A stretch of DNA of 35,611 nt from Reclinomonas americana ATCC 50394 (lineage: Eukaryota). Positions within the stretch are counted from its first letter, which is position 1; each line of letters begins with the position of its first letter. Shown here piece after piece: positions 35-29,827 of the stretch. Below the pieces are notes generated by a model. That model saw nothing but the letters and a program-made list of their open reading frames with translations, was not told the origin of the DNA and did not search any database. The position numbers were made by a program, and so were the translations under genes. The stretch lies in assembly GCA_048213135.1 (NCBI GenBank), contig PS015022.1, forward strand, positions 190,638 to 226,248, read 5' to 3'.

Positions 35-2190
35 GCCGAATTGATGCTGCAGCAGAGAGTGGCCGAGGTGCGTGCGGAGACGCAGCAGCTGCTGGCCGAT
101 CGCGAACAGCAGCACAAGGCGACGCTGGCCGACGCTCTGGCCAAGGTCGACGCCACCTACCGTGCCAAGATTGTGCAACTGCAGGAGGCCACCAAGCAGC
201 AAAAGTTGTGTGCTGCACCGTGGGAAGGGGAGGTGAACTCAGAATCACTTTTGTCTCATGCGTGTCAACAGGAGTGCACGCGATCAGCAGTTTGTCGGGG
301 CGCTGGAGGAGCGCAACAAGGCGATCGAGAAGCTGAATGAGCAGCTGGTGGCGGCGCGCCAGGAGCGACAGAAGCTGATTGAGGACGCACGCGCGCGACT
401 TGCCGAGATGCAGAAGCGCTACGCCGCATCGTCGTCTGCGGCGGCTGAGAACAGTGGCTACGCAGCCGAGGATGTGAAGTTGGTACGTCGTGGCGCATGT
501 GTGAGGACACAGTCAGTGCTTGCGCCAACTCACACGTATTTTTTGCAGGCCATGAATCGTATCTACGTCGACTTTGAAAAGTCAGTCGACAAGTCGGCGA
601 GCTATCCGAGTTTCGTGTTGTTGTGCCTTTCGTGCATGCATCGGCATTCTGACCTTTCATGCTTCTGCAGCTCGCGAAGTGTTGACAAAGCTGGTGGCCA
701 CCATCAAGAGCGTCACGGCGCGCTTCATGGCTGGAGAGCTGGTGGACGACGACGATGACGATGAGGAGGAGGACGAGGAAGAAGAAGAGGAGGAGGAGGC
801 GGAGGAGGAGGAAGAGGAGGCGCCTGCAGTGGCGGCTGCTGGCTCGGTGTCGGTGGGAGAGGCTGATGAAGATGAGGAGGAGGAGGAGGAGGAAGCGGCT
901 GTTGGCGAGGCCGTGCCGCCGCCTGTGGTTGCCGCAGTGTTGCCATCTCCTGTTGTATCGCCGCACGATGTACACGTGGTGGTGTCAAGTTCGGCGCCGA
1001 GCGCGCACCATGCGGTGCCGGAGCACGTCGCTGCCAGCAGCTCTGCGCCAGAAGTTGTGGCGGTCGAACAGCCGGAGGAAGAGGTGGCCGCGCAAGTGGA
1101 AGCAGAGGAGGAGGTGGTCGTGGCGGAGGAGGAGGAGGAGGACGAAGCGCCAGCAGAGACCTCGGTTGTCGACGCTCCGCGTGCGCCTTCACCCGCATCA
1201 GCACCTGCTCCGGAACCGGTGGTTGCCCCCGCTCCGGCTCCAGTGCCTGTGCCAGCTCCAGCTCCAGTGCCTACTGCCGCACCTGAACCAGTGCCAGTCG
1301 CGACGATTGCCGTCAGTCAGCCACCGCCACCACTGTCACCGCCACCAGTGGCACCAGCACCTGCTTCACCGGCTGGTGTCCGCGTGCTGTCGGTCGAGTC
1401 GGCGGCACCGGCACCGACGCCGGAGAAATCACCGCTGAAGACGGCCGATGCCGCAAGCGGTTTGTTTGGCACCGATGAAGACGCAGAGCATGTCACTGCT
1501 CCTCCGTCGGCCGAAAAGAAGCCGTCTGGAGCCGCCGCCGCCGCTGCAACAGTCAAGGCCAGCAGCGCTGGTGGACTGTTTGGCGACGGAGACGATGATG
1601 AGGCTGGAGGGATTTTCGGCGACGGAGACGCGTTGCGTGCTGACAGAATTTCCTTTTTGTGCTTTTATTGTTTGCTTGTGCTCACTGTTGGGCACTCTGA
1701 CAGTCCGGCGGAGCGCAAGCCAGCTCGCCCTGCTGCGTCTGCAGCCAAGAAGAATGCACCACCACCGAAGCAGTCATCATCATCGTTGTTTGGCGATGAC
1801 GACGACACGGAAGACATTCTCGGTGGATTGCCTGTTGGTGCGTTGACTTGGCAACCAGGTTCTCTCTCTCCCTCCTGTGTGTTGACGTCTTCTCTGCAGC
1901 CGCGCCATCCTCGTCATCATCGTCGTCCGGTGGTCGTGGGGCGCGCCGTGTTGTTGCCGAGGACACGGGCTTGGATGCGGCTCCTGTGGACGAGATCTTT
2001 GGTGATCCACTGGCGGCAACGGCCGCCGCCAACGCCGCAGCTGCAGCACCTCCACGAACGGTTTGTTTTCATCGATCGTCTTCTGAATCAAGTCCGTGTG
2101 TGGCTCACACTCTTTGGTGTCGTTGTTGCTGCGCAGCGCCAAGCCAAGGCTGCAGTGTCTACCATCTCCGACGACGAGTTGTTCAACTAA
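35..2190 (+). CDS. 5'-truncated FKBP15-like (WASH/retromer-associated) protein: coiled coil, conserved helical segment, acidic/Pro-rich tail with LF-acidic motifs
   Basis: Introns 205-271 (or 208-271), 483-548, 610-670, 1632-1703, 1838-1899, 2061-2136; stop at 2190. The spliced segment AEDVKLAMNRIYVDFEKSVDKSASYPTREVLTKLVATIKSVTARF resembles, from memory, the FKBP15 post-coiled-coil region (VKKIMNQVF..TIKMVT). The tail has LFGDDDD-type motifs. Confidence 0.6.
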
Positions 2191-2340
2191 ACCGATATGC
2201 ACCTGTCGCCGCTGTGACCACGAGACGAATGAAAAGGATTAATGTCTACAAAAAACAACTTTTGACGCATAGTGCACAGCTTTTTTTTACTTGGCTGTTT
2301 TTTTGTTGATGATGTTGATGGAGATACAGTGTGAGGTCGA

Positions 2341-5300
2341 TTATCTGCAAATAGAGAGTGATGAGTCAAGAGTTTCTGGGGAGCGGAGAGATGATGTGGC
2401 GAAACTGTGACCGTGATTCGTCGTTTTGATCAAAGTCTGTGTGTGCAAGGAGGGTGGGTGAGTCACTTGGACTGTACGGATCCTTTGCACCTGTGCAGCT
2501 CACACTCACCACTTGATTGCTCGGTAGCTTCAGGAGTAATGGGAGAATTGAGTGAAACGCACTTTTCACACAGGTAGGAGGCGAGACAACTCACCTTGTG
2601 GTGAGAAATCATCTGTGCGACAAGCAAGCATGCACAGTCAGCAAGTGACACCAAATAACGGAATGCAGACAACGAGACGACGCACCCATGGAGTCAAAGT
2701 CCGAGTTCGAGAGCAACTCATCCTCGTCGGCAGAGCCCACTGGCTGCCATTCGCGCTGCGCGGACTTGGCAAGTGCCTCGGGGACAGCTGTAAAGAGAGG
2801 TGAGACAGTGGAACCACGGCGGCACAAGGGTTGGAAGTTCACTGACCCGAGTCTTCCAAGTTGGCGACATCGGCTACGCATGGATAATGGGAGTCGTGAG
2901 CGACAGCAACAGTCAAGAGAGCGACGTGGGGAGACACGACTATGAACCATTCTCAGTGTTGTTGACTTGATCAAAGTCGGCGGCTGTTTTCACCGTGAGT
3001 AACTGGTGGTATCGAGCACACCATGCACACACACACACACACACCAAACGCACCGTACTCAGCACCTGGAACCTGCAACTGGGTCTGCTGCAATTGCTCC
3101 TGTGCCACCGGCTGCGAGGCGTAGTCCAGTCCATTTCCTGCACAAGAGAAATTAAGATGAAGAAAACCCCACACAAGCAACAACACTCAATACTGCAGAC
3201 CGAGAGTCAGCGTGTGTGCGAGTTCCAGGTGGTGCTGTTGCATGGCAGCACGCGAGCGCACAGAGAGGCACTTCCATGGCGCCGTAGAGGCGCGGCCACC
3301 GCTGCGCGCGGCCTTGGAGCACAGCTTGCGGGCGCGTCGGCGGAGGATCTTCAGTCGGCAAAGGTACTTGTCCGGCGCCTGCAGCTTCTTGCACTTGCGG
3401 TAGCGACGCTGTTAAGATGGTATGTGAGTGAAGAGTATGGTGTGATACCAGTGAAAGCTGCACAAACCAGTTGTTTGCGAGTGAGCAGCGAGCGCAGCGG
3501 CAAGCCACCTGCCATGATGAGGTGGTGAGAATAACATGAGAAACAACACCGCCACGCTGCAAGTCACTCACGTGATCGGCGGCTGCGGCCACGGCGAGAG
3601 CGAGCACGGGGGCGACGGGGAGCAGCATCGTCGGCTGCAATGAACAAGAAATGAGCAAAAAGCATTCGCTAGTGGTGTAGGGACAAGACGAACCGTCGTC
3701 ACCACCGCGGCGGCGGCGCAGCTTCTTCTGCGGCTTCTCGTCGTCTGCAACACACATGTTGGAGACACCAAAAAAACAAACAGGGAGTAACACACTCTCC
3801 GATCACTCACCATCATCGTCGCCGGCTGCAGGAGCAGCACGACGGCGTCGTTGGCGTCGGCGAGGCGGGTCTGCAAGAGCGGAGATCAGAGTTGTGGTGA
3901 GGGGTGTTACGCGTGTTGACGAAAGCATACCAACGTCGTCATCGTCCACGGCCAGACTGCCGGCCGACTTGCGCGGTCGTCGTCTCGCTGTGTTTCCACT
4001 TTGGTGAATGACTGACCATCAACGCAAGGACAACAACAAATATCGCGTACCCGGCATATCATCAGCATCGTCTGTGGAAGGCATCTTGGGTGCCGGGGCC
4101 ACAGCGTCGGCATCGTCGTCCTCGTTCAGGCTGCGACGCGGGCGACGGCGGGAGCGGCGGCGACGGCGGCCAACGCTCTCGTTGCTGTCGTCGTCCTGGT
4201 CAGCGTCGCGCACCTTTCTCGTGCGTCGTCTGCGAGCTGGCCTGTCGACCTCGTCGTCTGCACGTGCATCAACACCAGAGTGAGGGACACGGCAACAAAC
4301 TAATGCACACACGTGTTGAGTTGTGCTCACCAGGGGCGTCGTCAGCATCGCGTGAGCGACGAGAGCGGCGCTTGGGAAGCGCGGCGGCATCGTCACCATC
4401 CTCGTCGTTGGAGGCGCGACGACGGCGGCGGCGGCCGAAGCGTTCCACGGACTGGTCGCTCTCCTCGTCGACATCCCGGGAAGCGCGACGACGACGACGG
4501 CGCTTGGGCGCAGCATCGTCACGGACTGCAGGCACTCGTGAATTAGCAAGTCGCCACTATGATGAGTGCGAGGTCTTGAACGCAACTGCTGCTGTCGCCG
4601 TCCTCGTTGTCGTCGCTCTGCTTGCGGCTGTTGCGACGGCGGCGGCGTGGGCGCGCATCGGCGTCTATGTTGCAATATGTCAGCGAACGACTTGAGAGTG
4701 GTCACAGGCAACGACAGAGAAAGGGGAGGCGAACCGAGGCCGTCAGCATCCGAGTCGCGGTTGCGGTTGCGATTGCGTCTGCGACGGGCAACTGCGAGCA
4801 CAACAAGATAAAAGTCAGCCAGAAATGCGACAGGGTGGGAAATGAATATATATGATCTCATCCACGAGCCTCGTGCACGCAGAGCTGCAGGGGGGAAGAG
4901 GAGATGAGAGACAAGTGACCGTGCGGCATGCAAGATGGAGAATCACAAACCGCGATGCAGGCGTCCAAGTTCTTGGGCAAGTCGGCGCACTGAATCTGCG
5001 TGGATGTGAAGCGCATCAGCCAATAACACCCACCAGTGAAACACTGTGAAGGGTGACATACCAGAAACATGGCGGCTGGGCTGCAACTCGCCACCTTCTT
5101 CTTCGGCGGCATCACCGCCTTCCTGGCGAGGACGACGGCGGCGACGGCCACCAGCCTGCTCCTCGTCCTGGTCACGCGAGTCACGACGGCGGCGACGGCG
5201 GCCACCAGTCTGCTCCTCGTCCTCGGCACCACCGCGGTCACGGCGACGGCGGTCGCGCATGTCCGAGACGCGGGACGCTGTGCAGGGGGTTGTCAGCAAC

Positions 5301-7062
5301 GTGATAACGAGCAGCACGCAGCACACTTCAACCACACGTACCGAGGCGGCGACGGCACTTGCGGGCCTTGGCGCGCCAGATCTTCAGCTTGCGCACGGCA
5401 GTGGAGAGCGTGCGCTTGGCACGGCGGAGCAGGTTGCGCGCCTTGCGGTACTTGCGGCTCATGGCCGAGTTGGCCGTGTTAGAGGAGCTGCGCTCCTGCT
5501 CACGCCACTGCTGCACACGCTGACGCATGCGCATCAGGCGGCGACGAGCCGATACGACGGCGCGCTTCAGACGCGAGTTGTTGACGCGAATGCGGCGCAA
5601 CAATGCATTCTGGCGCTTCAGTCGAATCACTGCGCGCTTTGCGTTGCGTCGGACATCCTGTGAATCGCCACCAAAGATCAGCACTGTGTGTGTGTGTGTG
5701 AAGGTGCGATGTGAAGGCACGGGTTTTTACCTCGTCCTCGTCCTTCAGCTTGCCGTAGCTGCCGGTGCATGCGCGGGCCTGGCGAGCAGCACGCCGCAGC
5801 CGCTGGTACAGGTTGCGGTTCTGCTCCGTGCATCCCACACCGGCTGCAAATGTCATCGGGGAGAAGATGAGCAACACACCGCATTGAAAGGAGTTTTCGC
5901 ACGCACCCTTTCGGTACTTGACAAGCATGTTCTTGAAGAGGTGCGTCTGAGCCTTGTAGTGCTGCACAGTGCGACGGAGCTGCGATACGCAAATGTCATG
6001 CGCCGGGCAGAGGAGGGGAAGAGATGTGCCCGCGTCTCCCCCACGCAACATGCAGGATCTCACGCCACTGGTGCATGATCTTTTGTGTGTACCGTGAAGT
6101 CGCAGCGTTGCGCCCGCCATACGACTGCGAGCCACCATACGACTGCGAGCCACCACCATACGAGCTGCGGCCAGAAAAGTCGTCGTTGCCAAACGACGAC
6201 GCGGAGGAAGAGGGGGGCGGAAAGTACGACGGAGTCCGCGCAACCACACCGCCACGCACGCCACTCCTGCCTCCCAGATTGTCAAACGGATTCGAGGCAA
6301 ACGGATTGCGGCTGGCTGCTGCTCCCCCGCGGCTGCCAACACCAGCACCGCCACCGGTAAAACGATCGCCACGACGCAGTGGATCCATCAGCGGATCCTC
6401 ACCCGTCGGGTCAATGGGAGGCGGATCCAGCGGGCCACCCATTCCATCGTCGCCCAGTCCATTGCCATCGACATCGGAGAAGGCGTCGCCGTAATCTGCT
6501 GACAGGCACACGAATGATTGTCACGATCAGCGGTGTCAATGAAGAAACGAAAAGAGTGAGCGTGCGACGCACTCTCGTCGTCGAGTTGCGCGAGAAGTTG
6601 CACTGCGCTCATGACCATCGAATCAGTGCAAACTTATGTCACACTCACAGTGCAAAGTGGACCGCGCACGCACCCAAGTCAGCATCTGTCAATGAGCTGC
6701 TGATGTCCTCCTCGTCGTCCATGTTTGACGCTGCTCAACGATGATGAGAGAGTGGAATGAATGAAAGACGCACACAAAATCGGCGCAACGTCTGAGCAAG
6801 TCATCGTCGATGTTGCCACCTTGCTCAGCCCACACTGCTGGTGACTCTGTGCCACACATAACGTTACACACGCACACAAAGAGAGAGAGACACTCACGCG
6901 CGCGCATACCATCAACAACCTGCACACACACACACAAAGGAAATGATCAGTGTCTCTCTCTCTCTTTGTCACATACAGACAGGCACACACCTGCGAGTGC
7001 ACCGCCACTGCCACTGTCGCCACCACGAGCGACAGTAACAGAAGCAGCACTACTCTGCGCAT
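2341..7062 (-). CDS. Secreted low-complexity protein with alternating Arg-rich and Asp/Glu-rich blocks, ~30 exons
   Basis: ATG 7062 starts a signal peptide (MRRVVLLLLLSLVVATVAVAVHSQ). The frame can be followed through ~29 introns, mostly phase 1. It contains YGGSQS repeats, basic helices and DD..RRRRR modules. The last exon and stop (2341, alternatively 2366) are uncertain. Confidence 0.7.
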
Positions 7063-7191: not shown

Positions 7192-10100
7192 ATGGAGACC
7201 GCCAGGAGGAGGAAGAGAAGACAGGCGCTATTATGCGTGGCAGTGGCACTTGTCGTCGTCTTGCTGTGCGCATGTGTCACTGTGGCAAGTGGAGCGCGTG
7301 TGCGTGCCTCGGCGGCTGCTGAGTCGCTGAAGCGTGCGCGTCTGTGTGGTCGCGGTGGTGGCTCGTGTGGGTTTGAGGGGTACTTGTACTTTGGGGATTC
7401 GTGGGATACGCGGTCGGAGCGCAAGGCGCCGGCGCTTAATCCGTGCGATTATCGCGAGGTGGGCGCGAGGTGGCGAGTGCATTTTGTGGAGGTTGGTGGG
7501 GATCGCAGAGGGAGGAGGAGGGGGGAGAAGGAGAAGGAGGGAGAGATGGGGAAGGGAGGGGAGAGGGAGGGGAGAGGGAGGGGAGAGGGAGGGGAGAGGA
7601 AGGTGAGAATGTATGCATTGTCTGTGTACGGGCGGAGGCAGTGTTGCTTTGTGTGCGTGTGTGTGTGTGTGTGTGTGTGAATGTTACATGTGTGTGTGTA
7701 CAAGCGCGTGTGCAAGTTGTGTATGCAAGTGTGTGGAAGTGTACTTGTATCGCTTTATGAATCACTGTGTTTTTGTTCCGCAGTATGTTTGTGTACATGC
7801 GTTTGTGTGTATTTCGCTGTGCTTTAGACTGTGTTGCTGCATGTGTTTGTGTCTGTGTGTGCTGATGGAGATGCGTGTTCTGCAGGCGCGTGAAGAGGAC
7901 AGTGTGTTTGATATCTCCTTCGTGTCGACGCGGATGCGGGTGAACTGCGCGGTGAGCAACGATGGCACGAGGCGGCTGAGCTCGCAACTGGAGGCCATGC
8001 CGATGCGTATTGTGCAGAACCACGTTGCGTCTTTGCATCATCGTGTGTGTCTGGCGAGCGCGTGCTCATGCGGTAGTGTGCATGCAGGCGACTGGTGTGG
8101 TCAAGAGCGTTCACTTTCACAAGAATATGCCCCGCGAGGGTGTGGCCATGGCGTCGTCGTTCTTGCACTCGATCAATCTGCACGTTCTTCCGTCGGTGGA
8201 GGCCGCAGCGTCGCCAACGGAGCAGCCTGGTGAGCAAGGCCAGTTGCTGTTTCTCGACACGTCGGATGGGTCGTCGGAGCCGTTGCTTCGCCTGTGCGTT
8301 GCTTTGAAAAGAGAGGTTATCGATTACCTGTGCTCATTTAGAGATGCAGTCTCACATCCGAAGCCGACGGCGAGCACACGGTGGTGCGCCACCAGTTTGT
8401 CAGCGTCTCCGAGTTCGAGGTCAACGAAAAGGGCATTCACAAGCTCGAGTTGCGTGGGTGTACCGATCCAGGAGTGTGATGTATCACGCAGTTGCACTCA
8501 CTCAAATATCTGCACAACAGAAACAGGCTGCTGAAGAGCACGTACTCGGAGGAGGCACAGACCACAGCCAAGGTGCGTCTCGGATTACTGGCATCAATTT
8601 TCCGACATGGTTGTTGTGCTCACTCTTCTGCAACAGGGAGCGGCCACGGTGCGCGTCGATTCGTATGGCGTGACAGTCGAGGCCAGTGGCAGCATCAAGG
8701 TATGAGACGGAGAGAAAGAGTGCGGGTTGTGTACCAGCACTCTTCATCGTCGTTTGACGATGTGTGCAGGTCAAGGCCGGTGACCCGTCGGCCGCCGGTG
8801 AAGTCGGCGTGCGATACGCCAAGCCACAGCTCTTTGTCGCCACCTCGTCGAGCGAGGGCGCAGTGCAAGGTTTGAATTGCTTGTCAAAGTTGAGTGATAC
8901 TGTTCCTTAACCGTCGGTTGTTGATTGCAACAGAAAACAAGGCCGCCGAGGAACTCAAGGACACCATGTCGGCCAATCAGGTAATGTGTCAAATGCTCGC
9001 CGTCCTCGTGCGTGTCGGTGTGCTGACTGCCTCTTGACGATGACAGCCTCCTGGTTTCGGACTCGGCCATCAAATCAAGTTCACCGTGAAGCGTGTCTTG
9101 ATTCCTGAGGATCCCGCTCCCGACGTCCTCGATCTCGCCGAGTACGTGGAAGACGATTTTTATGCGCCACTAACATTGGAGGAGACGATGGACTTTGCAT
9201 TCATCGCCCTCTCGCCGAGCGAACTCACCGCCGTGGTAGAGCAGTTGCGGCAACACTTCAATGCCAGGCAAAAGTCTTTCGAAAGGTGACTGACAGCGTA
9301 CCATCGCGTGTGCAGAGCTTGCAACGGTGAGCGCACGCCGGCCGAGGCAGCCGCACTGATCATGCCACACACGTACAAGCCAGAAGCCGTGACGCATGTG
9401 GTTCGCCTGATTGAGCGCGTGCAACACAACTGCAGTGATGAGGCGCTGCAGGCGGTGCGTGTGGCACTCGTGTTGTTGTTGTTGTTATCCGGAGTTGATG
9501 CTGACTGACTGTGATCAATGCAGCTATTTGTGGCAGTGGGCGCACAGAATCACCCGGTGGCACAAGAACACTTGGTGCGTTTCGCGTCTGCACACGCGAC
9601 CAACCATCGTATCCGTCACCACGCGCTGGTCGCGCTGGCACACGATCGAGATGGCCATCGGTTTGGGATTCCAGAGTCGACTGCCGACACGATTCACAAG
9701 TTGCATTCGTTGTGGCGGCGCGATGCGGACACGCAGGTGAGCGCACTGGAGGGGAGGGGGGGAGAAAATGAGAGGGAAAGGATGCAGTGTGCGAGTTGGG
9801 TGCAACGCGCAGTAGGGAGAGTGAGAAAGAACGTAGTATGTGCATGAGATGTGCGAGGTGAAAGGAGAAGAGAGGGCGGTGCACTGAGCGACTTACCATG
9901 AGATGCTACACAGTTGTGATGAGAGTGAAAGAAAAGTGGTGCATGAAGCGAGTTTACAAGCAGTGCTCAGAAAGAGGAAAATTTGCCTTACCCTCTATCT
10001 GCATCACTCACTCTCTTTCCTCCTCTCGCAGGTGCTGCTGACTCTGACGGCTGCCATTGGCACCCGGCAGACGGCAGAGGGCTTCGAGCACGTCATCTCG

Positions 10101-12521
10101 GCCATTGAGGACGAAGCGCGTGTGCTCCTTCGCCAGCAACACCACGCTCCACCAACACCGGGCCATCTGGCGCACATGACCGTGTTGGTGCGCTCGCTAA
10201 GCAATGCCGGTGCTCCGCAGGCGCTCTCCTTCCTCGAAGCATGTGTTCGTCAGCATCGCGACAATGCTGTGAAGCGCGAGGCTGTGACGGCGCTGTCACG
10301 CATTGCCGCTCCCGAATCGACTCACGTGCTGATGAGTTTGGCACACGACGCCTCTGTCGACCACGATGTTCGCCTGGCCGCCGTGCAGTCGCTGTCGATG
10401 CGGTTCGTCCATTTTATTCTTGAGTGGTGTGGTCTGTCGTGTGTCGCTCACAGTGCGCCACAGCAACACGATGCGCCGACACTTCAATCGCACGCCGGAG
10501 GAAGCGTACGAGGCGGCCATGCGTGCAGAGCCACCACGAGACAGGAGTGACGATGATAACGACAACAATAACGATGACCAGAACGACGATGAGCCTGCGC
10601 AGGACGGTGGTGATGGCGACTCGTGGCAGCTGAAAAAGTTGCGCTTTTCTGCGTACTCTGCAATGTCGAGAGTCTTGCCTCAACAGTGCTTCCCCGTGGT
10701 GCGCACAGAGAGTTTCAGAGTCCGCAGTTTGGCAAGGTATTGACAGCAAGCTGATGAACTCGCTGTGCTTCGCTTGCTGACAACTGTTTGTCTGCGCCAC
10801 AGCACATTTTGAATGGCTCCTTCTCTGCCAGCATCGACATGAATGCGTCAAAGAGGTGTGGTGCTTTATATTATTTGCGAGGAGTATTGTGGACTGTGTG
10901 TGTCTCACCCTTTGTTCTCTATGTGTGTATCGCAGTGGCGATGACACGCTGCAAATGTTGCGTTGTATGGGCGACCATTGCAACAGTGACAACTCGCACT
11001 CATTCCTTCCCACTTGCAGGTCTGGTGTGGCGAATGTGGAGATGCCATTCCAGGTCTGCCTCTCTTGCGCGTGTAGACGACTGCTGTGAGAGTGGTCTCA
11101 TCTGTCGGGATGCATATGCAGGTGTGGAAATTCCACATGAAGGCATTCGAGGCCACAGCACGCGCCACATACCCTTCTGAGGAGGGCGCAGATGCCACTG
11201 TCGAGTTCAATGTGCAGGTTCACACAGGAGTGAGGACTCTATCTGTGATGATCACCACCCTCACCGCGCGTTTGTGCACCACAGTCATTCGGCGTCAGCC
11301 TCTTCCAGGAGGTGTTCAACCGCCAAGTGCAACCGGTGCAGACGCAAGACACATGCAATCTCGGCGCCGAGCCAACTCAAGATGTTGCGTCATGCACTCA
11401 CCCACAGTCTCATCCTCCACCGATCAACCAACATACTGTGCCATCACACAGGAGGAGATTGCCAGCAAGGAGCTCGTCAAGTCGGTGACGAAGAGCAACC
11501 GCAAGTGCTTCAGTTGCGGTGACAGCGATCGCAAAGTGGGAAGAAGTCAGTCACTCACGTTGGCGATTTCTGTGTCCGTGCAGTGGGCAAGATCTGCATC
11601 GGCATGCGTCTGCACGCCACCATGTCACTCAGCGCCAATCTGTACCTGGCGCCATTCGGCTGTGTGCCGCCGGCGGTAACAGCTGGCATCCGCGCGGCAG
11701 CGAAAATTTCGGTATGTCCGGAGGTGGAAGAAGAGGAGATGACAACCATGCGCTGTTTACTCATGGTTGTTGTTGTGTAGATCAGAGCCGAGGGCGGTGT
11801 TGGCACTGCAGCGGCCAAGGGCGGAGTGCGCGGAAAGCTCACGCTGGTCGATATTGCGTTGCCGTTCTTTGTCCGTGCACGCGCTGATGGCGCCTCGTGC
11901 ATGCGAGGCGTTGCGCAAGTCTAGTTGCGTCGGGCGGCGAGTGGTTGGGAGGAGAAAAATGGGGCACTGAAAAAATGTGTGCTCTCGCAGCCCGAGTGGT
12001 GGCAAGTTGAGTGTGTGGTGGGACGCCACTGGCGGTTCGGGTGGGTCGTCGGAACAAGCGCTGGTGGCCGTCGACGAGGACGAGGAACTGGTGGAGGCTA
12101 TTCCGCTGCTGGTCCCCATTGCAGCTCGTGTGGGTGGCATGTTGCTGAAGCACGCGGTGAAGAAGGTGGCCAAGAACATGCTCAAGTCGGGGTTGAAGAA
12201 ACTGGCCAAGAATGTTGCGTCTGTGTGTTGCTTGCATGCGCAAGACAAATGTGACTTACCGAGCGTTTCTTGCCGCGCAGCTGGTTGGAAAATTGCTCAA
12301 GGGCTCCCAGGTGTGTGGGATTGCATGGTCTTGTTGTGTAATCAAGTTGTACTCACTCGTCGCAGACGCTGTGGGAGTGGCACACGCCACATCGCGAGTT
12401 GAATTTGATGGCAGTGGGCCAGTGCACGGTGGAGGATCTGGCCAACTATTCGGGCGGCAACGGCGGTGGTGATGGTAATCGCGGAGGAAATGATGACGAC
12501 GGTGGTGGTCAGTGGTGGTGA
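7192..12521 (+). CDS. Vitellogenin/large lipid transfer protein (LLTP)-like secreted protein, ~26 exons
   Basis: N-terminal hydrophobic signal, then a beta-rich region, a helical/HEAT-like domain (LFVAVGAQNHPVAQEHL; VRSLSNAG; VKREAVTALSRI; VRLAAVQSL), and a C-terminal beta-sheet (IRAEGGVG..KGGVRGKLTLVDIALP). Stop TGA at 12521. Two junctions (~8270-8349, ~10607-10687) are ambiguous. The family call rests on architecture only. Confidence 0.6.
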
Positions 12522-15029: not shown

Positions 15030-15065
<36 letters not shown>

Positions 15066-16023
15066 GGCGCTGGCCACTGCAAGTGACACATGGGACTATT
15101 GCTTTCGTTGCTTGATGGAAACGAGAACATTCTGGTCATGGGTCCGTTGTCTTTCTTCGTTTGCGATGTGTGTAGGTGGTACAACAACAACAAACTTGCA
15201 AATCCGAAAAGCTAGACAGTTGCATGATGATCACCATCTTGTGTGAGCACCAGAAACTGAGTGAGACATCACGGAACAGTAAGAAAAAGTCGAGATGCAT
15301 AATGCTGCCGCTTCTAGTGACCACACTTATTCCTTTCCCTCCCTTCCCCAAAGCGCAGAACATGCTCGGCTACCGCGATGCCCCCGAGCTAACCGCGGAG
15401 ACCATTGTCGACGGTGGCTGGGTCCGTACCGGCGATCTCGGACGAATCGACCATCGTGGGCTCGTGTTCTTCGAGGGCCGAAGTCGCGTCTCCTTGCGTG
15501 TGGTCAGTAGTGTGGTGTCGAGTCTTCTCACCACCACCTCTGTGCGCACAGTCAAGGAGATGATCCGCGTGCCCATCTTCCCGATGTTCGCTCCGACCGA
15601 CATTGATATCGTGCTGCAACACCATCCGGCCGTCAAGGAGTGTGCCAGTGCCGGACTGGTGCGTCGTGCCACCGGTTACGACGTGCCGGTGGCCTTTGTG
15701 GTGAAGCAGGCGTCGGTTCGTGTTGCGACAATGCAGCAACCTTGAGAGGACGATCGCTCACAGAGTGCTTGCAGCATGCGAACGTGACGGAAGACGAGCT
15801 GATCGAGTTCCTTCGGCCGCAGCTGGTGTGTGATACCCTTGGATGAACGCAGCATGCAGAGTTGCTCACTGCTGTGTTGTGGTGTCTCCAGCCGGTGCAG
15901 AAAGTGCCAGCGCACGTGGTGTTCCTCCAGCAGATGCCACGCAGCAGTGCGCTGGGCAAACCGATGCGGCACATGTTGAGGGAGACGCCGGAGGCCAAGG
16001 CCCAGTTGAGCGACCTGCTTTGA
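12658..16023 (+). CDS. ANL-family AMP-dependent acyl-CoA ligase, 4-coumarate-CoA ligase/luciferase-like, 15 exons
   Basis: Spliced motifs VIFRSTLP, IMFSSGTTGHPK, FHVSG, QLWGMTE, GEIFIRAPGNMLGY, GWVRTGDLG, GRIKEMI, HPAVKE, PRSSALGK. No PTS1 (ends SDLL*). Confidence 0.9.
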
Positions 16024-19451: not shown

Positions 19452-22400
19452 ATGGCAAGTGGGAGTGGTGTGCCGCGTGAGTTGCGTGTCTCTCTCTCAT
19501 TGTATTGTTGTCAGATGCATCATCTCCATCATTCTCACATTGTGTGATTCGTTCCCTATGTTACTCTCCTCTCACTCTCTCGTGCAGTCATGACCACGAT
19601 GTTGGTGATGAGGAATGTGCGATGCGCCTTGTCAAAGCACTGTCTCGTCCATGCACCCGCGCTCTGCAATCCAAACTCGAGCAAGTGCTGCCGGCGTTTC
19701 TCGATTCGTATCCTGGTGTGAATCACGTCGCCGAGTGGTGCAAGGCGCCGAGTGAGCGGGATGTGCGGTGAGTGTGTGGGGAGAGATGTGGAAGCACGCG
19801 ATGGCAGGATGCAGATGGAGATGTGAAAGAGAGAGAAGAGAAGAGATTGCCACAAGCAAGCGGCAGATGGTCATCCCTTTCTTTTCATTGTCTCACCACA
19901 CGGACTCCTCATTCTATCCCGATGTATGCCCCCCCTTTCTTGTCACACACATGCTGTCGCTCACCAACATCCTCTCTTTCTTTGTGCCTTTCCCCGCATG
20001 CAGAACCATTCCAGACGGAGTGGAAATGTGTGTCCAGTTGAGCGAGATTGAGCGGAAGACGGTGCGCGAGTGGCATCAGCGAGGCCAGCTGCACGACTGC
20101 TTTTCGTTTGATGCGATGCTGTGCTGCTCGATCTTGCTGCTGGCCGGTCATCGAGAGCACCCTGGGGACGAGCCAGATCGTATGATTGCGGAGAGCGATG
20201 TGGTGAGTGTGAAATGGGATGAGGAGGAGTGTGATCTCCCTCTCTATGTGATCATGCCTCTCATTCTCTTACTGTTACACAGCGCAATGCGATTGAGCGA
20301 ATGAGGGAGGTGTTTGAGCAGGCGAGTCCTGCCCGAGCTCGTGCACTCTTTGTGCCTCTGCTCGGTGGCGGAGGAAGAGGAGAAGGTGAGTTGCACCGGC
20401 TTGTGCGACAGCTGCAGGTTGGCAGGGATGTGGAGGAGGAATTGGTGGTGCAGCTGAACGATGCCCGTGATGGTGAGTGAAGAGACAAGAGATGGATGGT
20501 GCTTGTGGTTGGATGGTTGGATTGAATGTGGAAGCTGATGCTGTCTGGTTGTGTGTGAATGCAGGTGCACTGACTCAAGCAGACCAGTCATCACCACCGT
20601 CGGTGAACATGGAGCAAGTTGAGTGAATTTACACGTAGAGATTGTCGCTTGCAGATTTCTCATCGTTTCTCACGTGTATGCTGGTTGATCAGATGCGAAT
20701 GGAAATGCAGGAGACCATGCGTGCAGAGATGGAACTCATGCGACAACAGCTGGTCACAATTATCATGTCGCCCTCTTCTCCCTCAGCTGCAGGTGTGTTC
20801 CGTGATGGACCTTCATGGATGTGCTTTGCTGTGCTCACTCATTCCCTCTGTGCCACACAGCACCCGACAACAGTCGCTCATCAAAGACACCGCTCATCGC
20901 CCGCACCGTCAATCCAGTGACTACATTCCGTTTCCCCAGTCGGTGTGCGCTGGCTGCCTCTCTCGCCACGCGCATCGTGGATGCTGTGGAAGGTTGGTTG
21001 TTCCTTGTCTGCCCCCTTGCATCTCCGCACACGTGTGTCTCATGATGTTGTCTGGTGCTGGATGATTCTTCTCAGCACACCAACCGATCATGGTGGTGCT
21101 GACGGGCGATGGTGGCACTGGCAAGTCATTCCTGGCCGAGCTGCTGGTGACCGAGTTGCAGGTCACTCGCCGATGGAAGGGATCAGCCGTGTCGGTGGAG
21201 ATGCGTGGTCATGTGGGTGATGCGAGGGAGCATATGAAGGTGTGCTGACGAACATGCATGTTGTCTTTTCCAGTTGTGTCTTCTCCTCTCGCTGCTATTC
21301 TGACTCTGCTCTCTCCTTGCCACATGCTGCAGGCAGAGAATGCACTGGGCGAGTGTCTGCGTGCCTTTGTTTCGGCACAGATGCGAGTGGATGAAGTGGA
21401 GGGACGAAGGATGGCCGGTCAGGTGGATGCACTGCTGGCGAGTGGTGAGGCGGAACCAGCACGTCGTCTGGTGCGACAGCTGATGCACGCCTCGGGTGGA
21501 GTGATGGTGCTGGACAATGTGGGATCGGCGGAGCAAGTGAGGAGTGTTGTTCGATGTGCTGATGAGGGTGCGTGGCTATTAGAGAGAATCTGGGATGGAT
21601 GTTCTAATCCTGACTTGATGTGCATCATGCCGGTGCAGGTGGAATGGTGGCACCGACTGTGGTGGTGACGACTCGGTATGGACATGTGGCAGATGAGATT
21701 CGTGACTCGATGATGCACGAGGCGGAGGTGGAGTGTGTGCGAGTAGAGAGCGTGGAGAACGAGGATATTGTGCAGCTGGTGGAGGAGCGACTGCTCCACA
21801 AGGTGTCAGTGGATGTGCGACGACGGATTGTGGAGGCACTGGAGAGTGGACAGCAGGAGAAGAGTGCACTGCGAGTGAGTGCTTGTGTTGGGTAAGTGAG
21901 TGCGTGAGTGAGTGCATGACTTGGATGAGAAGCCTCACTCGTCTCTCTGCTTCTCTTCTTCGTCCTGCAGCTGGTTGTTGTCACAGTCAGCAGCACAGCT
22001 GGTGGGCGCGCGACTGGAGGAGGTACTGAGTGGCATTGGTAGTGATGCGCTGTCGCAGTTGCTGGAACGCAATGTGATGTCACAGACAGCGGCTGTACGT
22101 CGTCTGTTGGTGCTGATCACGGCGTGCAAGGAACTCGGCTTGCCAGTGACAGTGGCACTCGCACGAGTGGCTTTGAGTGTGTTGCGAGTGATTCCCGATA
22201 TGACAACGGCAGTGGGCGGTGATGATGGTGGTAAGCAGGCTGCAGTTGAAGAAGATGAGGAGGCGGCAAGTCGACTCTTGGAGCTGGGTCAGTGTGTGCG
22301 TCGACTGCGTATGCATGAGCTGGCTCAGGAGAGGCGACGACATGCGCCTAAGGTGGTGGGTGAGCGACTACAGTTTGGCGAGATGAGTGAAGAGGAGGAG

Positions 22401-23825
22401 CGCCGATTTCGTGCACGGCGTGATGAGTTGGTGAGTGGTGATGAAGGTGTGGAAGATGTGCTAGAGGGTCTGTGTTTGTCGAATCTGGTTACGGTCGGTG
22501 TCAGTGGCAGCGTGGAGGGTGTGGCTCGTGTGCTGTGTGGTGGACAGGAGGGGAAGAGTGGCAACAAAGTGGTGGAGTATCGAATTCACGATGAGAGTGC
22601 TGGGTGGATTGTGGGACGGTGTGGGGATGCAGTATCACGGGCGCGGCGACTGATTGTGCGATTGGTGTGTTGTGTGCTGAGTGGCATTGATTCTCAAAAT
22701 GACAGTGACGGTGTGCTGTTAGTGTCACGAGACTTGCTTAGTGTGCTGCACACAGTGTGGCGACGTTTGGGTGACGACGACGGTATGTGGGTGAGTAAAA
22801 CTGTCGGTGTGAATGGACTGCTGGTACAAGTCGGGGCTGGGAAGTGGATTGGCGAGCTTTGTTACAGAGGAATTCTACCGTCGCGTGGGTTCGATGAATC
22901 AGTGGCCTCGTCAATTATGCGACGTGCGACGACAGGTGGACTTCGCGAAAGTTATACTGTGAAAGCAAGTCCAGTGCGACGGAGGTTTGCCATTGTGGTG
23001 GCAAATTGTCGTGCATGGTTATTTGGCATGCGTCGTCAATGGGAAGAACGAATGGCAGCGTGGCAACAAGCGTGGCGTCTGTGTGAGGAATGGGAGAGGG
23101 ACGGCAGTGGTGAGCTGACTGTGCTGGATAGGATCGACTCATTTCGCTGCTTGATGTGGTTTGCCTACTATGCGGACAACTTGCCACTCCTCGTGCAGTG
23201 CCATGAACGGCAATGTGCGAAACTGGGTGAGCGTCATCTGGACTCGCTGACGACATTGTTCTGGCAGGCCAGGTTCCACTATTATCGAAAACGATATGCG
23301 GATGCAGAAGCACTCTTTCGGCGCTGTTGGGAGTTGCGTCGACTGGTTCTCGGCGATGAGCATCCGGAAACATTAGCGTCTATGAGCGATGTTGCGTTGT
23401 GTACCCTTGATGGCAGTCATCTGGAAGAAAGGATACTGTTGGAACGTGATTGTTTGCAGTTGATGCGAGATGCACTGGGAGAACGGCATCCAAGCTCTCT
23501 CACGTCGATGAACAATCTTGCTTTTTCACTCAGTCAGCGTAACACACCCGAATTACTGGCCGAAGCTGCTGATTTGTACCGTGAGTGCTTGGAGGGCCTT
23601 CGAGAGCTACTGGGTGACAAGCATGTGAGGACACTATTCGCCATGTACAACTACGGCATTCTGCTCATGAAGCAGCAACGGTGGGCCGAAGCAGAGGCTC
23701 TGCTGGTGGAGTGTGTGGATGGTCGGCGAGCGGAGCTTGGTGAAAAGAATTCGGACACTCAGGAAGGCGTTAGGGGTCTGGCCGAGTGCCGACGACGTGC
23801 GAGAGAGGCCGGTGTGATGTTGTGA
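19452..23825 (+). CDS. NLR-like STAND P-loop NTPase with C-terminal TPR repeats (copy 1), 11 exons
   Basis: Walker A VVLTGDGGTGKS, Walker B VMVLDNV, sensor VVVTTR. Kinesin-light-chain-type TPRs (LGDEHPETLASM, LGERHPSSLTSMNNLA). Ten introns keep the frame. Confidence 0.8.
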
Positions 23826-24251: not shown

Positions 24252-27200
24252 ATGGCGAGTGGGAGCGGAGTGCCGCGTGAGTTATGTGTCTCTCATTGCG
24301 TTGTAGTCAGATGCGTCATCATCATCATCATTCACACATTCGTTTCCTGTCATTCTCCTCTCTCTCCACTCTCGTGCAGTCATCATCACGATGCTGGAGA
24401 TGAACAATGCATGATGCGTCTTGTCAAAGCACTGTCTCGTCCCTGCACCCGCGCTCTGCAATCCAAGCTTGAGCAAGTGCTGCCGGCGTTTCTCGATTCG
24501 TATCCCGATGTGAATCACGTCGCCGAGTGGTGCAAGGCGCCGAGTGAGCGTGATGTGCGGTGAGTGTGTTGGAAAGATGTGGAAGCACACGATGGAAGAT
24601 GCAGATTGGAGATGTGAATGAGTGAGAAGAGAAAAATTGCCGCAAACGGTGATGCACTTGTCATCCCTTTCTCCCCATTCCCGCACTCTTCATCTCCCTC
24701 CACACGGACTCCTCATTCTATCCCGATGTATGCCCCCCCTTTCTTGTCACACACATGCTGTCGCTCACCAACATCCTCTCTTTCTTTGTGCCTTTCCCCG
24801 CATGCAGAACCATTCCAGACGGAGTGGACATGTGTGTCCAGTTGAACGAAGAGGAGTGCCAGCTGGTGCGCGAGTGGCATCAGCGAGGCCAGCTGCATGA
24901 CTGCAGTTCATTCGATGCGATGCTGTGTTGCTCGATCTTGCTGCTGGCGGGTCATCGAGAGCACCCGAGAGACGAGCCGGATCGTCTGATTCCAGCTGGC
25001 GATGTGGTGAGTGTGTTGGAATGAGTGGAGATGGGAAGAGGAGAGAGAGGAGTGTGGTCTCCTTCTCTGTGATTGTGTCTCTCACTCATTGTGTGCAGCG
25101 CAATGCGGTTAAGCGAATGAGGGAGGTGTTCGAGCAAGCAAGTCCCGCACGAGCTCGTGCACTCTTTGTGCCTCTGCTCGGAGATGGAGGAGGAGAAGGC
25201 GAGTTGCATCAGCTTGTGCGGCAGCTGCAGATTGGCAAGGAAGTGGAGGAGGAATTGGTGGTGCAGCTGAACGAGGCTCGCGATGGTGAGTGAAGAGAGA
25301 GATGGATGGTAATTGTGTGCGGATGATTTGATTGAATGTGGAAGCTGATTCTGTCTTGGTTGTGTGTGAATGCAGGTGCACTGAGCCAGGCGGATCCATC
25401 ATCACAATCGGTGAACTTGGAGCAAGTTGAGTGAGAATGCATGAGGAGGGCAGTCGCTTGCAGATGTCTCATTGTTTCTCACTTGCATGTTGATTGATTA
25501 GATGCGGATGGAAATGCACGAACGAGACGACGCGATGAGCGTCTCTCCTCCTTCTCCCTCAGCCGCAGGTATGTTCCATGATGGATCCGCACGGTAGTGC
25601 GTTGCTATGCTCGCTCTCACTCACTCACTCTCTCTCTCTCTCTCTCTCTCTGCTCACTCTCCTTGTGCCACACAACACCAGAGAGCAGTCGCCCACCCTT
25701 GACACCACTCATCGCCCGCACCGTCAATCCAGTGACCACATTCCGCTTCCCGAGTCGGCGTGCACTGGCAGCTTCACTCGCCACGCGCATTGTGGGTGCT
25801 GTGGAAGGTTGGGTGTTCCTTCTCCTTCTCCCTTCCTTTCTTCACCACATTCGTGTGTCTCATCATGTTGTCTTGTGGTGGATGATTCCTGCGCAGCACA
25901 TCATCCTATCGTGGTGGTGCTTACGGGAGATGGTGGCACTGGCAAGTCGTTCCTGGCAGAGCTGCTGGTGACCGAGTTGCAGGCCACGCGGAGATGGAAG
26001 GGATCGGCCGTGTCTGTGGAGATGCGTGGTCATGTGGGTGATGCGCGGGAGCATGTGAAGGTATGCTGAGGAGCAAGCATGTTGTCTTTTCCTGTTCTGT
26101 CTTCTCCTTATGCTGACATTCTGACTCAGTCTCTCTCGTCGTCATGCCGCAGGCAGAGAATACACTGGGCGAGTGTCTGCGTGCCTTTGTTTCGGCACAG
26201 ATGCGAGTGGATGAAATGGACGGACGAAGGATGGCCGGTCAGGTTGATGCTTTGCTGGCGAGTGGCGAAGTGGAGCCAGCACGTCGTCTCCTGCGACAGT
26301 TGATGCATGCATCGAGTGGAGTGATGGTGCTGGACAACGCGGGATCGATGGAGCAAGTGAGGAGTGTTGTTCAGTGTTCTGATGAAGGTGCGTGTAATCA
26401 TGAGAGAGAATTCGTTCTTGGTCAGATGTTTGATCCTGACTTAATGTGCATCATGCCGGTGCAGGTGGAATGGTGGCACCGATTGTGGTGGTGACGACTC
26501 GGTATGGACATGTGGCAGATGAGATCCGTGACTCGATGATGCACGAGGCAGAGGTGGAGTGTGTGCGAGTGGAGAGTGTGGAGAACGAGGATATTGTGCA
26601 GCTGGTGGAGGAGCGACTGCTCCACAAGGTGTCAGTGGATGTGCGACGACGGATTGTGGAGGCGCTGGAGAGCGGACAGCAGGAGAAGAGTGCACTGCGA
26701 GTGAGTGCTTGTGTTGGGTGGGTGGTGTGAGTGAGAGTAAGAGGTGCGGATGAGAGGACTCACTCATCTCTCTCAATTCTTCATGCAGCTGGCTGCTGTC
26801 ACAATCAGCAGCAGAGCTGGTAGGCGCGCGGCTGGAGGAGGTGCTTATCGGTGTTGGTGACGATGCGCTGTCGCAGCTTCTGGAACGCAATGTGATGTCG
26901 CAGACAGCAGCTGCACGTCGCCTGTTGGTGCTGATTGCGGCGTGCAAGGAACTCGGCTTGCCAGTGACTGTTGCACTTGCGCGAGTGGCACTGGGCGTGC
27001 TGCGTGTGATTCCCGATGTGGCGGTGGCTGTGGGTGGTGCGGATGAAGATGAGGAGGCAGCAAGTCGACTGGTGGAGTTGGGTCAGTGTGTGCGGCGACT
27101 GCGATTGCATGAGTTAGCACGGGAGAGGCGACGGCGTGCGCCTGAGGTGGTGGGCGAGCGACTGCAGTTTGACGAGATGAGTGAGGAGGAAGAGCGAAGA

Positions 27201-28658
27201 GTGCGTTCACGTCGTGATGAGCTGGCGGGTGGTGGTGTTGGTGACGACAGAGTGGAGGATATGTTGGAGGGTCTGTGTTTGTCGAATCTGGTGACCGTGG
27301 TTGTCAGTGGCAGCGTGGACAGTGTGGCTCGTGTGCTGTGTGGCGAGCAGGTGAGGGAGAGCAACGTGGCGATGGAGTATCGAGTGCACGACGAGATTGC
27401 TGGGTGGATTGTAGAACGATGTGGGGATGCAGTGGCACGGGTGCAGCGACTGATTGTGCGACTGGTGTGTTGTGTGCTGACTGGCATTGATTGGTGTGAC
27501 AGTGATGGTGTGCTGTTGGTGTCACGAGACTTGCTTGGTGTGCTGCACACAGTGTGGCGACGATTGGGTGAGGACAATGAAATGTGGGCGGCTGATGCTG
27601 TGGGTGTGAACGGTTTGTTGGTGCAATGTGGGGCGGTGGAGCTGATTGCTGAGCAGTGTGGTAGGCGACGACTACCACCGCGTGGATTTGGCACAGATAT
27701 GGCCTCGTTGCTTCTGCGACGCATGACAGAGTGTGGACACCACGGAGGTAGCGATGGTAAAGCAAGTCCTGTGCCACAACGACGATTCGCCGTTGTTGTG
27801 GCCAAGTGTCGTGCTCGGTTGTCTGGAATGGTTCATCATTCGGATGGACGCAACGCAGCGTGGCAACTAGCGTGGCATCTGTGCGAGGAGTGGGAGAGGG
27901 ATTTCAGTGGAGAGATGACTGTGCTGGATAGGCTTGACATGCTTCGTTGCTTGATGTTTCTTGCGTACTTTTCCGAAGACTTGCCTCTGCTACAGCAGTG
28001 CCATGAACGGCAGTGTGCGACACTGAGTGGGAGTCATCCGGATTCGTTTAGTGCTCTCTTTTATCGGACCAAATACTACATTAATCAACAGCAGTTTGCT
28101 GATGCTGAGGCAGACTGTCGTCGGTGCTGGAAAATGCGACGACTGCTTCTTGGAGCAGTGCATCCAGACACATTGGTGTCCATGAGCGAAACTGCATTCT
28201 GCGTCCAAGATGGCAGTCGTTTGCAGGAAAGGAGTCAGATTGAGAGAGAATGTTTGCTGTTGAAGCGAGAAGTGCTGGGGCATCGGCATCCGGAGACTCT
28301 CAGCTCGATGAACAATCTAGCTGCTTCTCTATATCAGCAGGATTCTTCAACTTCGCTGGCGGAGGCAGCTGACTTGTACCGTGAGTGCTTGGAGGGTCGA
28401 CGAGAGGTGTTGGGTAACAGACATCTTGATACATTGCAAACGATGTGCAACTTCGGCATCGTGCTCATGAAGCAGCAACGATGGGCCGGGGCAGAGGCAC
28501 TGTTGGTGGAGTGTGTGGATGGTCAGCGAGCGGTCCTGGGCGAAGAGTATCCGGATACGGCAGATACTATCAAGGCGCTGGCTGAGTGTCGACGTCGTCA
28601 TGACCAAGACCAGCAGCGAAGGCAGCGACTTCGCGATCGCGTCTGCTCTGTAATGTGA
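24252..28658 (+). CDS. NLR-like STAND P-loop NTPase with C-terminal TPR repeats (copy 2)
   Basis: Same exon-intron structure as copy 1. Motifs GDGGTGKS, VMVLDNA, VVVTTR; TPRs LGAVHPDTLVSM and LGHRHPETLSSMNNLA. Confidence 0.8.
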
Positions 28659-28937
28659 TAGTGTAAAAGGCCGCATCTCTTTCGAATTCAATTTCTCTCC
28701 ACGCCGCAGCGTGCACGTCGTGGTTGCGCCTCAGCAGGTCTATGCGCATACTCGACGATAACAAGGACAACCACTTGCACTGAGCATCACGTGACCACTA
28801 CCGACGACGCCTTCACTGCTTTATTGTCTTCTTTTCCCGAATTCGATGTGCCGTGTACGATCGCAGAAAATNNNNNNNNNNNNNNNNNNNNTCAGGTGGG
28901 AGGAGAGAGAGAGAGAGAGGGAAGGAGGGATAGAGAG

Positions 28938-29035: not shown

Positions 29036-29068
<33 letters not shown>

Positions 29069-29160: not shown

Positions 29161-29231
29161 GTGCGCGTGCGTGCGTGTGTGCATTGCTCATGCTGTCTCT
29201 TGTGTTACGAAGTTGTGAGCTTGGGCTGTTG

Positions 29232-29326
<95 letters not shown>
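29232..29326. repeat. Compound (TC)n(TG)n microsatellite
   Basis: Seen directly. Confidence 0.95.
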
Positions 29327-29328
<2 letters not shown>

Positions 29329-29340
29329 CGTTCCACGCAC

Positions 29341-29827
29341 TGCTTCCACATCTGCGGACTGGCAATAGGCTGCACCGGAGAGATACACACATGTCTTGGC
29401 AAGCGACTCGGGGTAAGCTCCAACAGGCCCTGCAAACACGCACACACAAACACACACAAGAGAGTGAGTTGAGAGTGTGTGAGAAAGAGAAGAGAGGAGT
29501 TGTGTGACATCGGTGATGCAATACGCGGGTGAAAAGCGACTGAGCAGAGAGTGTGTGTGTGGGTGTGAGAGAGAGAGAGAGGAGGGAGAGGCTCTGTGTG
29601 TGTGTATGTGCGCGTGCGTTGAGAGAGAAGAGATGCGATTCGCGCACACGCACGCAACGATGAACACGAGCACCGCGCAAGAGCGCTCCTCCTTCTCCTC
29701 CTTCGTGCTCGCGTGCTCTTTGTGAGGCGACTTGAGTGTCGATGAGCGCGTCAGTTGCGTGGCATGAGAGGAGCAGTGTGGCCAGTGACATGATGGCGAT
29801 GAGGAGACACACAGAGGTGCGCGTCAT
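29341..29827 (-). CDS. 5' exons (signal peptide and N-terminus) of the class 3 lipase, in inverted orientation
   Basis: Exons 29827-29659, 29539-29525 and 29429-29341 give MTRTSVCLLIAIMSLATLLLSCHA...AYPESLAKTCVYLSGAAYCQSADVEA. The AAYC motif is typical of the Lipase_3 N-terminus. Confidence 0.75.

Follow-up and report, generated by a model that had tools for sequence, protein, structure and literature searches.

The introns modelled in a 35,611-base window of Reclinomonas americana ATCC 50394 (contig PS015022.1, positions 190,638 to 226,248) begin with one of two forms of the 5' splice site (donor). Donors of the normal form carry G at intron position +5 and nearly always follow an exon ending in G. 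Donors of the shifted form, mostly GTTGCGT, lack G at +5, carry G at +6 and follow an exon ending in A, C or T, without exception. The reading frame places the start of shifted introns at the G of GTT. U1 small nuclear RNA (snRNA) may hold one pairing register over both forms, with the cut made at the first GU; the probability of this reading is put just short of an even chance. The window is the whole stretch of DNA analysed, and positions are counted from its first letter. A slash in a donor separates the last exon base (-1) from the first intron base (+1). H denotes A, C or T; nt, nucleotides; (+) and (-), the strand.

Two donor forms and the position of the cut

The window has a G+C content of 52-63% and is crowded with short interrupted reading frames. 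It contains 711 N, in runs at 28872-28891, 30273-30292 and 34323-34993. It is best explained as nuclear DNA of an intron-rich eukaryote, with U2-type introns that usually end in CAG. Nine gene models (A to I) were curated by hand from reading frames and translation; calls of a dynamic program served as candidates, and only GT-AG introns were allowed. All nine models are open from the first codon to the stop or the modelled end. The models hold 96 introns with both ends placed, all of them in silico, of 55-834 nt (median 70 nt). Acceptors, with only GT-AG permitted in modelling, are CAG (86), TAG (9) and AAG (1). Branch-like CTNAC motifs were noticed by eye in introns, without a tally.

Donor classes were set by intron letters only. 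A donor counts as shifted if +3 is a pyrimidine, +6 is G and +5 is any base but G. G at +5 is present in 66 of the 96 donors, preceded by G in 63 and by A, C and T in one each. Shifted donors number 25 and are preceded by A (14), C (6) or T (5), never by G. The remaining five donors belong to neither class, and all are preceded by G. Shifted donors after G and after another base thus number 0 and 25, the others 68 and 3 (Fisher p = 4.4e-20), which upholds the first-pass annotation in its claim that every shifted donor follows a base other than G. After removal of gene B and of G, the paralog of gene F, G precedes 0/21 shifted donors against 41/42 others (p = 8e-16). None of the G-preceded donors is shifted, as had also been stated; their number is 68 rather than about 75. 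Canonical donors after a base other than G had been given as only three, A/GTGCGT at 6572(-), C/GTGAGT at 3571(-) and A/GTGCGT at 29340(-). They are four, with T/GTGCGT at 8294(+). The donor at 29340(-) stands outside the 96, as repeats and an assembly gap obscure its acceptor.

Shifted heptamers are GTTGCGT (15), GTTGCGG (3), GTTGAGT (2), and GTTGTGT, GTTTCGT, GTTGCGA, GTCGCGT and GTTATGT (1 each). T occupies +3 in 24/25, G +6 in 25/25, T +7 in 21/25, and GC fills +4/+5 in 20/25. G-preceded donors have G at +5 in 63/68. A is found at -1 of 14/25 shifted donors and at -2 of 27/68 normal donors; G is found at +8 of 13/25 and at +7 of 30/68, respectively. Donors starting with GTT number 38: all 24 that follow a base other than G have G at +6, and of the 14 that follow G, 13 have G at +5 and one belongs to neither class. 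Acceptors are CAG in 24/25 shifted and 62/71 other introns, with median lengths of 71 vs 69 nt. On both strands of the window GTTGCGT occurs 21 times, never preceded by G, and 15 of these occurrences are modelled donors. The six unmodelled copies, at 5643, 23333, 23391 and 29754 (+) and at 27854 and 13098 (-), follow C, A, T, A, C and T; the cases are few and carry little weight.

A motif shared by both forms, G-[G/T]-T-N-N-G-T, had been proposed for all donors. It fits 20/25 shifted donors (GTTNNGT) and 45/68 G-preceded donors (G/GTNNGT), and the remainder deviate. The link between donor class and the final base of the exon is confirmed and follows in large part from the motif, because normal donors by definition take the motif's first G from that very base. 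The sole non-trivial half is the absence of G before shifted donors, which is suggestive. If -1 of shifted donors behaves as -2 of normal donors (G in 10/68), the chance of 0/25 is 0.019, a value suggestive only.

The two forms also emerge without curation. The exon-chain dynamic program knows codon usage (three long training exons), GT...AG and an intron penalty only, and with codon usage and GT...AG alone its output is too noisy for use. On addition of a loose 3' requirement and a two-component donor mixture, started at random and re-estimated by the program itself, two donor types appear, nnnG/GTGnGTG and nnnn/GTTGCGT. In a control run the donor model ignored positions -4 to -1, which kept the last exon base from influencing the calls. 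Among the 122 introns predicted, 3/33 shifted and 56/89 other donors follow G (3 and 30 against 56 and 33; p = 4.7e-8); 70 of the 122 donors are common to the curated set and 52 lie outside it. The three calls of shifted donors after G, all outside the curated models, were dropped: 6244(-) is an in-frame piece of a repeat exon, 28723(+) lies downstream of a stop, and 33462(+) is antisense to a single-exon open reading frame (ORF). Also dropped was the program's intron 23391-23459 (T/GTTGCGT), a stretch that the paralog retains as coding sequence of tetratricopeptide (TPR) repeats.

Shifted introns begin with the G of GTT. In G+C-rich DNA an ORF alone is weak evidence for this, only 2/25 shifted introns being without an alternative frame-keeping GT-AG pair, and three other lines were therefore used. 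A junction test was applied where the exons on either side of the intron measure 60 nt or more; codon usage frames each exon separately, and the 3 nt beside the junction are ignored. Offset 0 is obtained for 12/14 shifted introns (chance 1/3, binomial 8e-5) and for 32/34 others. A cut after the G, with the intron starting in TT (offset +1), and a cut at the inner GT of GTTGCGT, 5 nt downstream (offset +2), are each backed by 1/14 and were rejected. A TT...AGN reading of equal length is compatible with the frames and was set aside as doubly non-canonical.

Two shifted junctions of gene D, an acyl-CoA synthetase gene, are exact to the residue on solved relatives. At 15007 the flanking exons fall on consecutive residues of 8ppp_A (360/361), 4fut_A (356/357) and 6h1b_A (356/357). 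At 15483 the exons end at residue 432 and resume at 434 of 3a9u_A, and the split codon supplies 433. Homolog P0122, the only usable one, obtained from exon 15359-15481, aligns free of gaps over 14254, 15007 and 15483; around 13944 and 14050 its alignment is gapped and uninformative. Searches of solved structures with exons 13834-13941, 14107-14253 and 14645-14755 give E = 0.2-0.55 only, and junctions 13944, 14050 and 14254 are thus without confirmation from solved structures. A homolog search with exon 14833-15006 yields none, and an exhaustive one with exon 12972-13313 yields a single irrelevant match. In the tandem paralogs F and G the 29 bases from start codon to shifted donor differ at three sites, all synonymous third positions, and the second exon is coding-like in the frame joined only by the shifted donor (both by eye).

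Proposed U1 pairing and rival explanations

Pairing was scored as Watson-Crick pairs with the conventional U1 5' end given in papers on shifted registers, which may not be the host's own. Shifted donors form a mean of 3.0 pairs in the normal register vs 4.9 in the register moved by one, and 22/25 pair better moved. The other 71 donors form 6.2 vs 2.6, and 0/71 pair better moved. The idea of a fixed U1 register, raised in the first-pass annotation, fits the sequence to this extent; as a principle it is not new.

According to this reading, U1 would pair in one register with a seven-base frame, G-[G/T]-T-N-N-G-T, anchored by its first G at U1 C9, by T at A7 and by the final GT at C4-A3. The catalytic cut would be chosen later, at the first GU within the frame. 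A frame beginning GGT would be cut after its first G and give the normal form, G/GTNNGT. A frame beginning GTT would be cut before its first G and give the shifted form, H/GTTNNGT, mostly GTTGCGT. In the latter the intron's own first G would substitute for the last exon G, and the exon might end in any base. All steps assigned to U1 or U6 are inferred. The pair with A7 in the moved register would explain the near-invariant T at +3; the moved helix would explain the invariant G at +6, the frequent T at +7 and the A-rich -1, which would act as position -2. After an exon-final G the normal form would pair at every frame position, and the shifted form would therefore never be better. After any other base the shifted form would restore the G-C9 pair, which would provide a selective account of the link between class and exon end.

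Two further proposals concerned evolution. The freeing of the exon end from G finds some support in the codon phases (0/1/2), which are 9/7/9 in shifted and 27/36/8 in other introns: phase 2, in which an exon-final G would stand second in its codon, is enriched among shifted introns, 9/25 vs 8/71 (p = 0.012), and less clearly without genes B and G, 8/21 vs 6/42 (p = 0.052). Sliding of introns by 1 nt is not borne out, as 0/10 paralogous intron pairs of genes F and G, the only comparison, change class or position. Insertion of T after GT in H/GTGCGT, giving H/GTTGCGT, may offer a frame-neutral route between the forms.

A number of points weigh against the fixed register. By reading frame alone most single introns admit many alternative GT-AG pairs (23/25 shifted introns admit some), and the motif was already known during curation of the models. 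The sample is one 35.6-kb window, in which the shifted share per gene ranges from 0/8 to 7/14. Shifted donors (25) far outnumber H/GTGCGT and H/GTGAGT donors (3 in 96, plus 1), which by hand count pair as well or better in the normal register; pair counts do not explain this excess. The two pseudouridines of conventional U1 find no complement in GC at +4/+5. In the moved register U would face U1 C8, and central mismatches strongly impair U1 duplexes, according to part of a paper on pairing between U1 and the 5' splice site. U6, too, would have to pair in a displaced register or forgo pairing. A Rfam scan of the whole window gives 0 matches, hence no snRNA (U1/U6) gene there.

Two of the rivals accept the shifted donors and change the reader. 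A second U1 species might carry A for C facing frame base 2 and pair free of mismatches with sites of the GUUGCGU type, while standard U1 serves GGUNNGU and the cut is still made at GU. Such a pair of species would account for a shifted class as tight as the normal one or tighter, and for its excess over H/GTGCGT donors, left unexplained by a single U1; in humans, variants of the U1 gene are on record in literature abstracts. It demands an extra component where the demonstrated shifted register suffices, and a literature search found no such U1 in print; it is considered unlikely. Alternatively, a start of the GTTGCGT type might be a separate signal, read mainly by U6, U5, Prp8 or a protein, with the link to non-G exon ends arising as compensation between exon and intron contacts. 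Positions -1 and those of the intron are generally interdependent at splice sites, which counts for this explanation, as do GC at +4/+5, unaccounted for by conventional U1, and the three canonical exceptions, whose hexamers (GTGCGT or GTGAGT) are all of the best kind. Left unexplained by a separate signal are the offset of GT by one base (+6/+7 vs +5/+6), T at +3 and the A-rich -1, all of which a moved U1 helix predicts. It is held to be about as improbable as a second U1.

The other two rivals concern the introns themselves. Shifted donors might be an artefact of the gene models, either not real or cut at another GT, with the pattern produced by the choice of boundaries. The junctions are in-silico ones, frame alternatives exist for 23 of the 25, agnostic runs of the program are noisy, and the donor at 205(+) has an alternative 3 nt away. 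Yet the two classes emerged unsupervised, and the association survives removal of -1 with 52/122 calls outside the curated set. Further, 15/21 GTTGCGT heptamers lie exactly at modelled donors, the junction test gives offset 0 in 12/14, two junctions are exact to the residue, and the inner GT of GTTGCGT (offset 2) is backed by 1/14 junctions. An artefact is very unlikely on this evidence. Finally, shifted introns might be introners, a mobile intron family with GTTGCGT as the end of the element. The heptamer is unusually uniform, and passages of PMC3879977 report Micromonas introner families that have a donor consensus of their own. Similarity was compared among introns up to 120 nt, with the first 9 and last 6 nt excluded and F-G pairs left out. 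Mean local alignment scores are 7.4 (shifted-shifted), 7.9 (normal-normal), 7.6 (mixed) and 6.8 (shuffled), and the best shifted-shifted score is 13 vs 15 for shuffled sequence. Without intron-wide similarity, and with acceptors and lengths shared with the normal class, the shifted introns are neither a mobile family nor minor-class introns; an origin as introners is given almost no credence.

Genes of the window

Gene A (35..2190, +) is truncated at the 5' end; its product is an acidic protein in which LFGD-like motifs recur. It has 6 introns and is open to the stop. Donors at 483, 1838 and 2061 (+) are preceded by G, those at 205, 610 and 1632 (+) are shifted. The shifted donor A/GTTGTGT at 205..211 (+) is ambiguous, with T/GTGTGC in frame 3 nt downstream. 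A/GTTTCGT at 610..616 (+) opens a 61-nt intron whose removal is demanded by the frame. C/GTTGCGT at 1632..1638 (+) opens a 72-nt intron of in-frame length, called from signals only.

Gene B (2363..6722, -) encodes an Arg/Asp-rich repetitive protein. It has 23 introns and is open to the stop; two of its exons give no family match in Pfam. Donors: 2 shifted, 2 canonical after a base other than G, 19 after G. The shifted donors are T/GTTGCGT at 6043..6049 (-) and A/GTTGCGT at 4580..4586 (-). The canonical exceptions are A/GTGCGT at 6567..6572 (-), where the preceding 30-nt exon can also be skipped in frame, and C/GTGAGT at 3566..3571 (-). Introns split short Arg- and Asp-rich exons and are in phase 1 in 19/23 cases, nearly all after a G that opens a Gly, Asp or Ala codon; the arrangement looks like repeated exon duplication. 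Upstream of the likely start of the gene, at 6731-7062 (-), lie intron-like units with G/GTGTGT at 6990, C/GTGAGT at 6897 and C/GTTGCGC at 6789. They are in frame with an ATG at 7062, which would give an N-terminus resembling a signal peptide, and may be coding, 5' untranslated region or chance. C/GTGAGT at 6897(-) is a possible fifth canonical donor after a base other than G, in this uncertain 5' region.

Gene C (7192..12520, +) encodes a secreted, large lipid-transfer-like protein. It has 23 introns and is open over 1065 codons. One exon matches Vitellogenin_N in Pfam; eight further single exons give nothing useful there. Donors: 8 shifted, 1 canonical after a base other than G, 14 after G. 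The shifted donors (all +) are C/GTTGCGT at 8024..8030, A/GTTGCGT at 8449..8455 (acceptor at 8520 or 8526, both in frame), A/GTTGCGG at 9244..9250, T/GTTGCGT at 10957..10963 (no alternative frame-keeping GT-AG pair), T/GTTGCGT at 11384..11390 (offset 0 missed in the codon-usage junction test), A/GTTGCGG at 11513..11519, A/GTTGCGT at 11924..11930 and T/GTTGCGT at 12214..12220. The canonical exception T/GTGCGT at 8294..8299 (+) opens a 56-nt intron, and the following exon reads as coding only in its frame. No other GT is seen by eye at 8294 ± 3k, and the junction test shows no mismatch here.

Gene D (12658..16023, +) encodes an acyl-CoA synthetase of the AMP-binding family, as identified by matches to solved acyl-CoA ligases and by alignment to P0122. 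It has 14 introns, 7 shifted and 7 after G, and is open to the stop. The shifted donors (all +) are A/GTTGCGA at 12692..12698, in an N-terminal micro-exon region and with no alternative frame-keeping pair; C/GTTGCGT at 12898..12904, 13944..13950 and 14050..14056; T/GTTGCGG at 14254..14260, with a 391-nt intron and ungapped against P0122; A/GTTGCGT at 15007..15013, with a 352-nt intron; and the shifted-like A/GTCGCGT at 15483..15489, with C at +3. The exon end with the shifted donor at about 14204-14262 is duplicated inside the 391-nt intron, at 14342-14400. The copy is flanked by purine-rich repeats and holds a second donor, T/GTTGCGC. At 13587-13596 (+) the gene reads G/GTTTGTAAGT. The cut at 13587 is required by the frame and by AMP-binding continuity in the next exon, which together exclude a textbook GTAAGT 4 nt downstream.

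Gene E (16331..18918, +) encodes a fusion of isochorismatase-like, 2OG-Fe(II) oxygenase-like and GST-like parts. It has 1 intron, G/GTGCCT. Its exon has 395 relatives, the best at 47% identity, and the family assignment is taken from the Pfam families of the relatives. The same combination of families is found in fungi and in marine protist transcriptomes. Among metagenome loci, 203 pattern matches were obtained for gene E, none confirmed.

Gene F (19452..23825, +) encodes a P-loop protein with TPR repeats (Pfam). It has 10 introns and is open to the stop. Gene G (24252..28658, +) is its tandem paralog, with 10 introns of the same positions and phases. Each has about 1120-1130 codons, and the upstream regions are also alike. 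Shifted donors (+) lie at 19481 (A/GTTGCGT) and 20618 (A/GTTGAGT) in F, and at 24281 (A/GTTATGT) and 25426 (A/GTTGAGT) in G. Between F and G, T at +3, G at +6 and T at +7 are kept while +4/+5 vary (GTTGCGT vs GTTATGT). At 19477-19487 and 24277-24287 (+) a perfect-looking C/GTGAGT precedes the in-frame shifted donor by 4 nt in both paralogs. If it were used, the frame opened by the conserved ATG would end; competition between the two donors, or an alternative transcript, is possible.

Gene H (29827-29341, -) is partial and was read as lipase-like. It has the shifted donor C/GTTGCGT at 29652..29658 (-), where the codon-usage junction test missed offset 0, and the canonical A/GTGCGT at 29335..29340 (-), followed by a CA repeat and an assembly gap. 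The gene stops in this CA repeat, ahead of the gap at 28872-28891. Gene I (30748..32723, +) encodes a class 3 lipase (Lipase_3 match) and has 8 introns, all after G. Its last intron, 31844-32677 (+), is 834 nt long, twelve times the median, and consists almost wholly of C/T-rich low-complexity repeats. The lipase-like genes H and I stand head to head, with microsatellites and an assembly gap between them.

Relation to known systems

In the main texts of the open literature searched, no genome-wide shifted donor class was found described, which is no proof of absence. The principle of a moved register is known; its routine use as a second donor form would be new, if borne out by transcripts and genome-wide counts. 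A routine two-form donor code would comprise U1 positioned by the frame, a cut at the first GU, about a quarter of the introns in shifted form and an exon end released from coding constraint, with register and cleavage uncoupled genome-wide. It is offered with reserve, at somewhat less than an even chance. The choice of the cut site after marking by U1 is still debated, and such a code would supply thousands of natural test cases. It would improve gene prediction in the lineage, where the standard donor model would miss such introns or misplace them by at least 1 base; GTGAGT 4 nt upstream of 19481 and 24281 and GTAAGT 4 nt downstream of 13587 are decoys for that model. It would also bear on the distribution of intron phases and exon-end bases. 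If confined to few genes or already described, it would be a modest annotation point.

U12-type introns, with the donor motif RTATCCTT, are likewise a second class with a rigid motif beside the major class. RTATCCTT is found in no modelled donor, and shifted introns match normal ones in acceptor and length. In Mamiellophyceae such as Micromonas, passages of Verhelst et al. (2013, PMC3879977) give the consensus AG/GTGCGT, whose hexamer is that of the normal class here, and a CTGAC-like branch motif, similar to the CTNAC motifs noticed by eye in the window. No second, shifted class is mentioned in those main-text passages. Registers with a bulge or an asymmetric loop, as presented in parts of Tan et al. 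(2016, PMC4856993), also bring a downstream GU to U1 C4-A3, and +7 or +8 can matter. The sites described there keep the exon G and +1/+2 normal and loop out intron bases; shifted donors of the window lack the exon G, and their entire helix would be moved.

The closest likeness is the human shifted register (Roca and Krainer 2009, via passages of PMC4856993, PMC9311317 and PMC6280755), in which all pairs between the 5' splice site and U1 are moved by one and the cut stays at GU. These sources describe it as shown experimentally in human cells and known from rare, weak sites. Shared features are a poor site in the normal register, a helix moved by one, predicted here with a conventional U1, and a cut at GU; an example oligonucleotide in PMC4856993 is built like A/GTCGCGT at 15483. 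The two middle positions are GC here, not AA as in the human shifted sites of these passages. Unlike the rare human sites, the shifted form of the window is found in 25/96 modelled introns, has a consensus tighter than that of the normal class and is linked exclusively to exon ends other than G.

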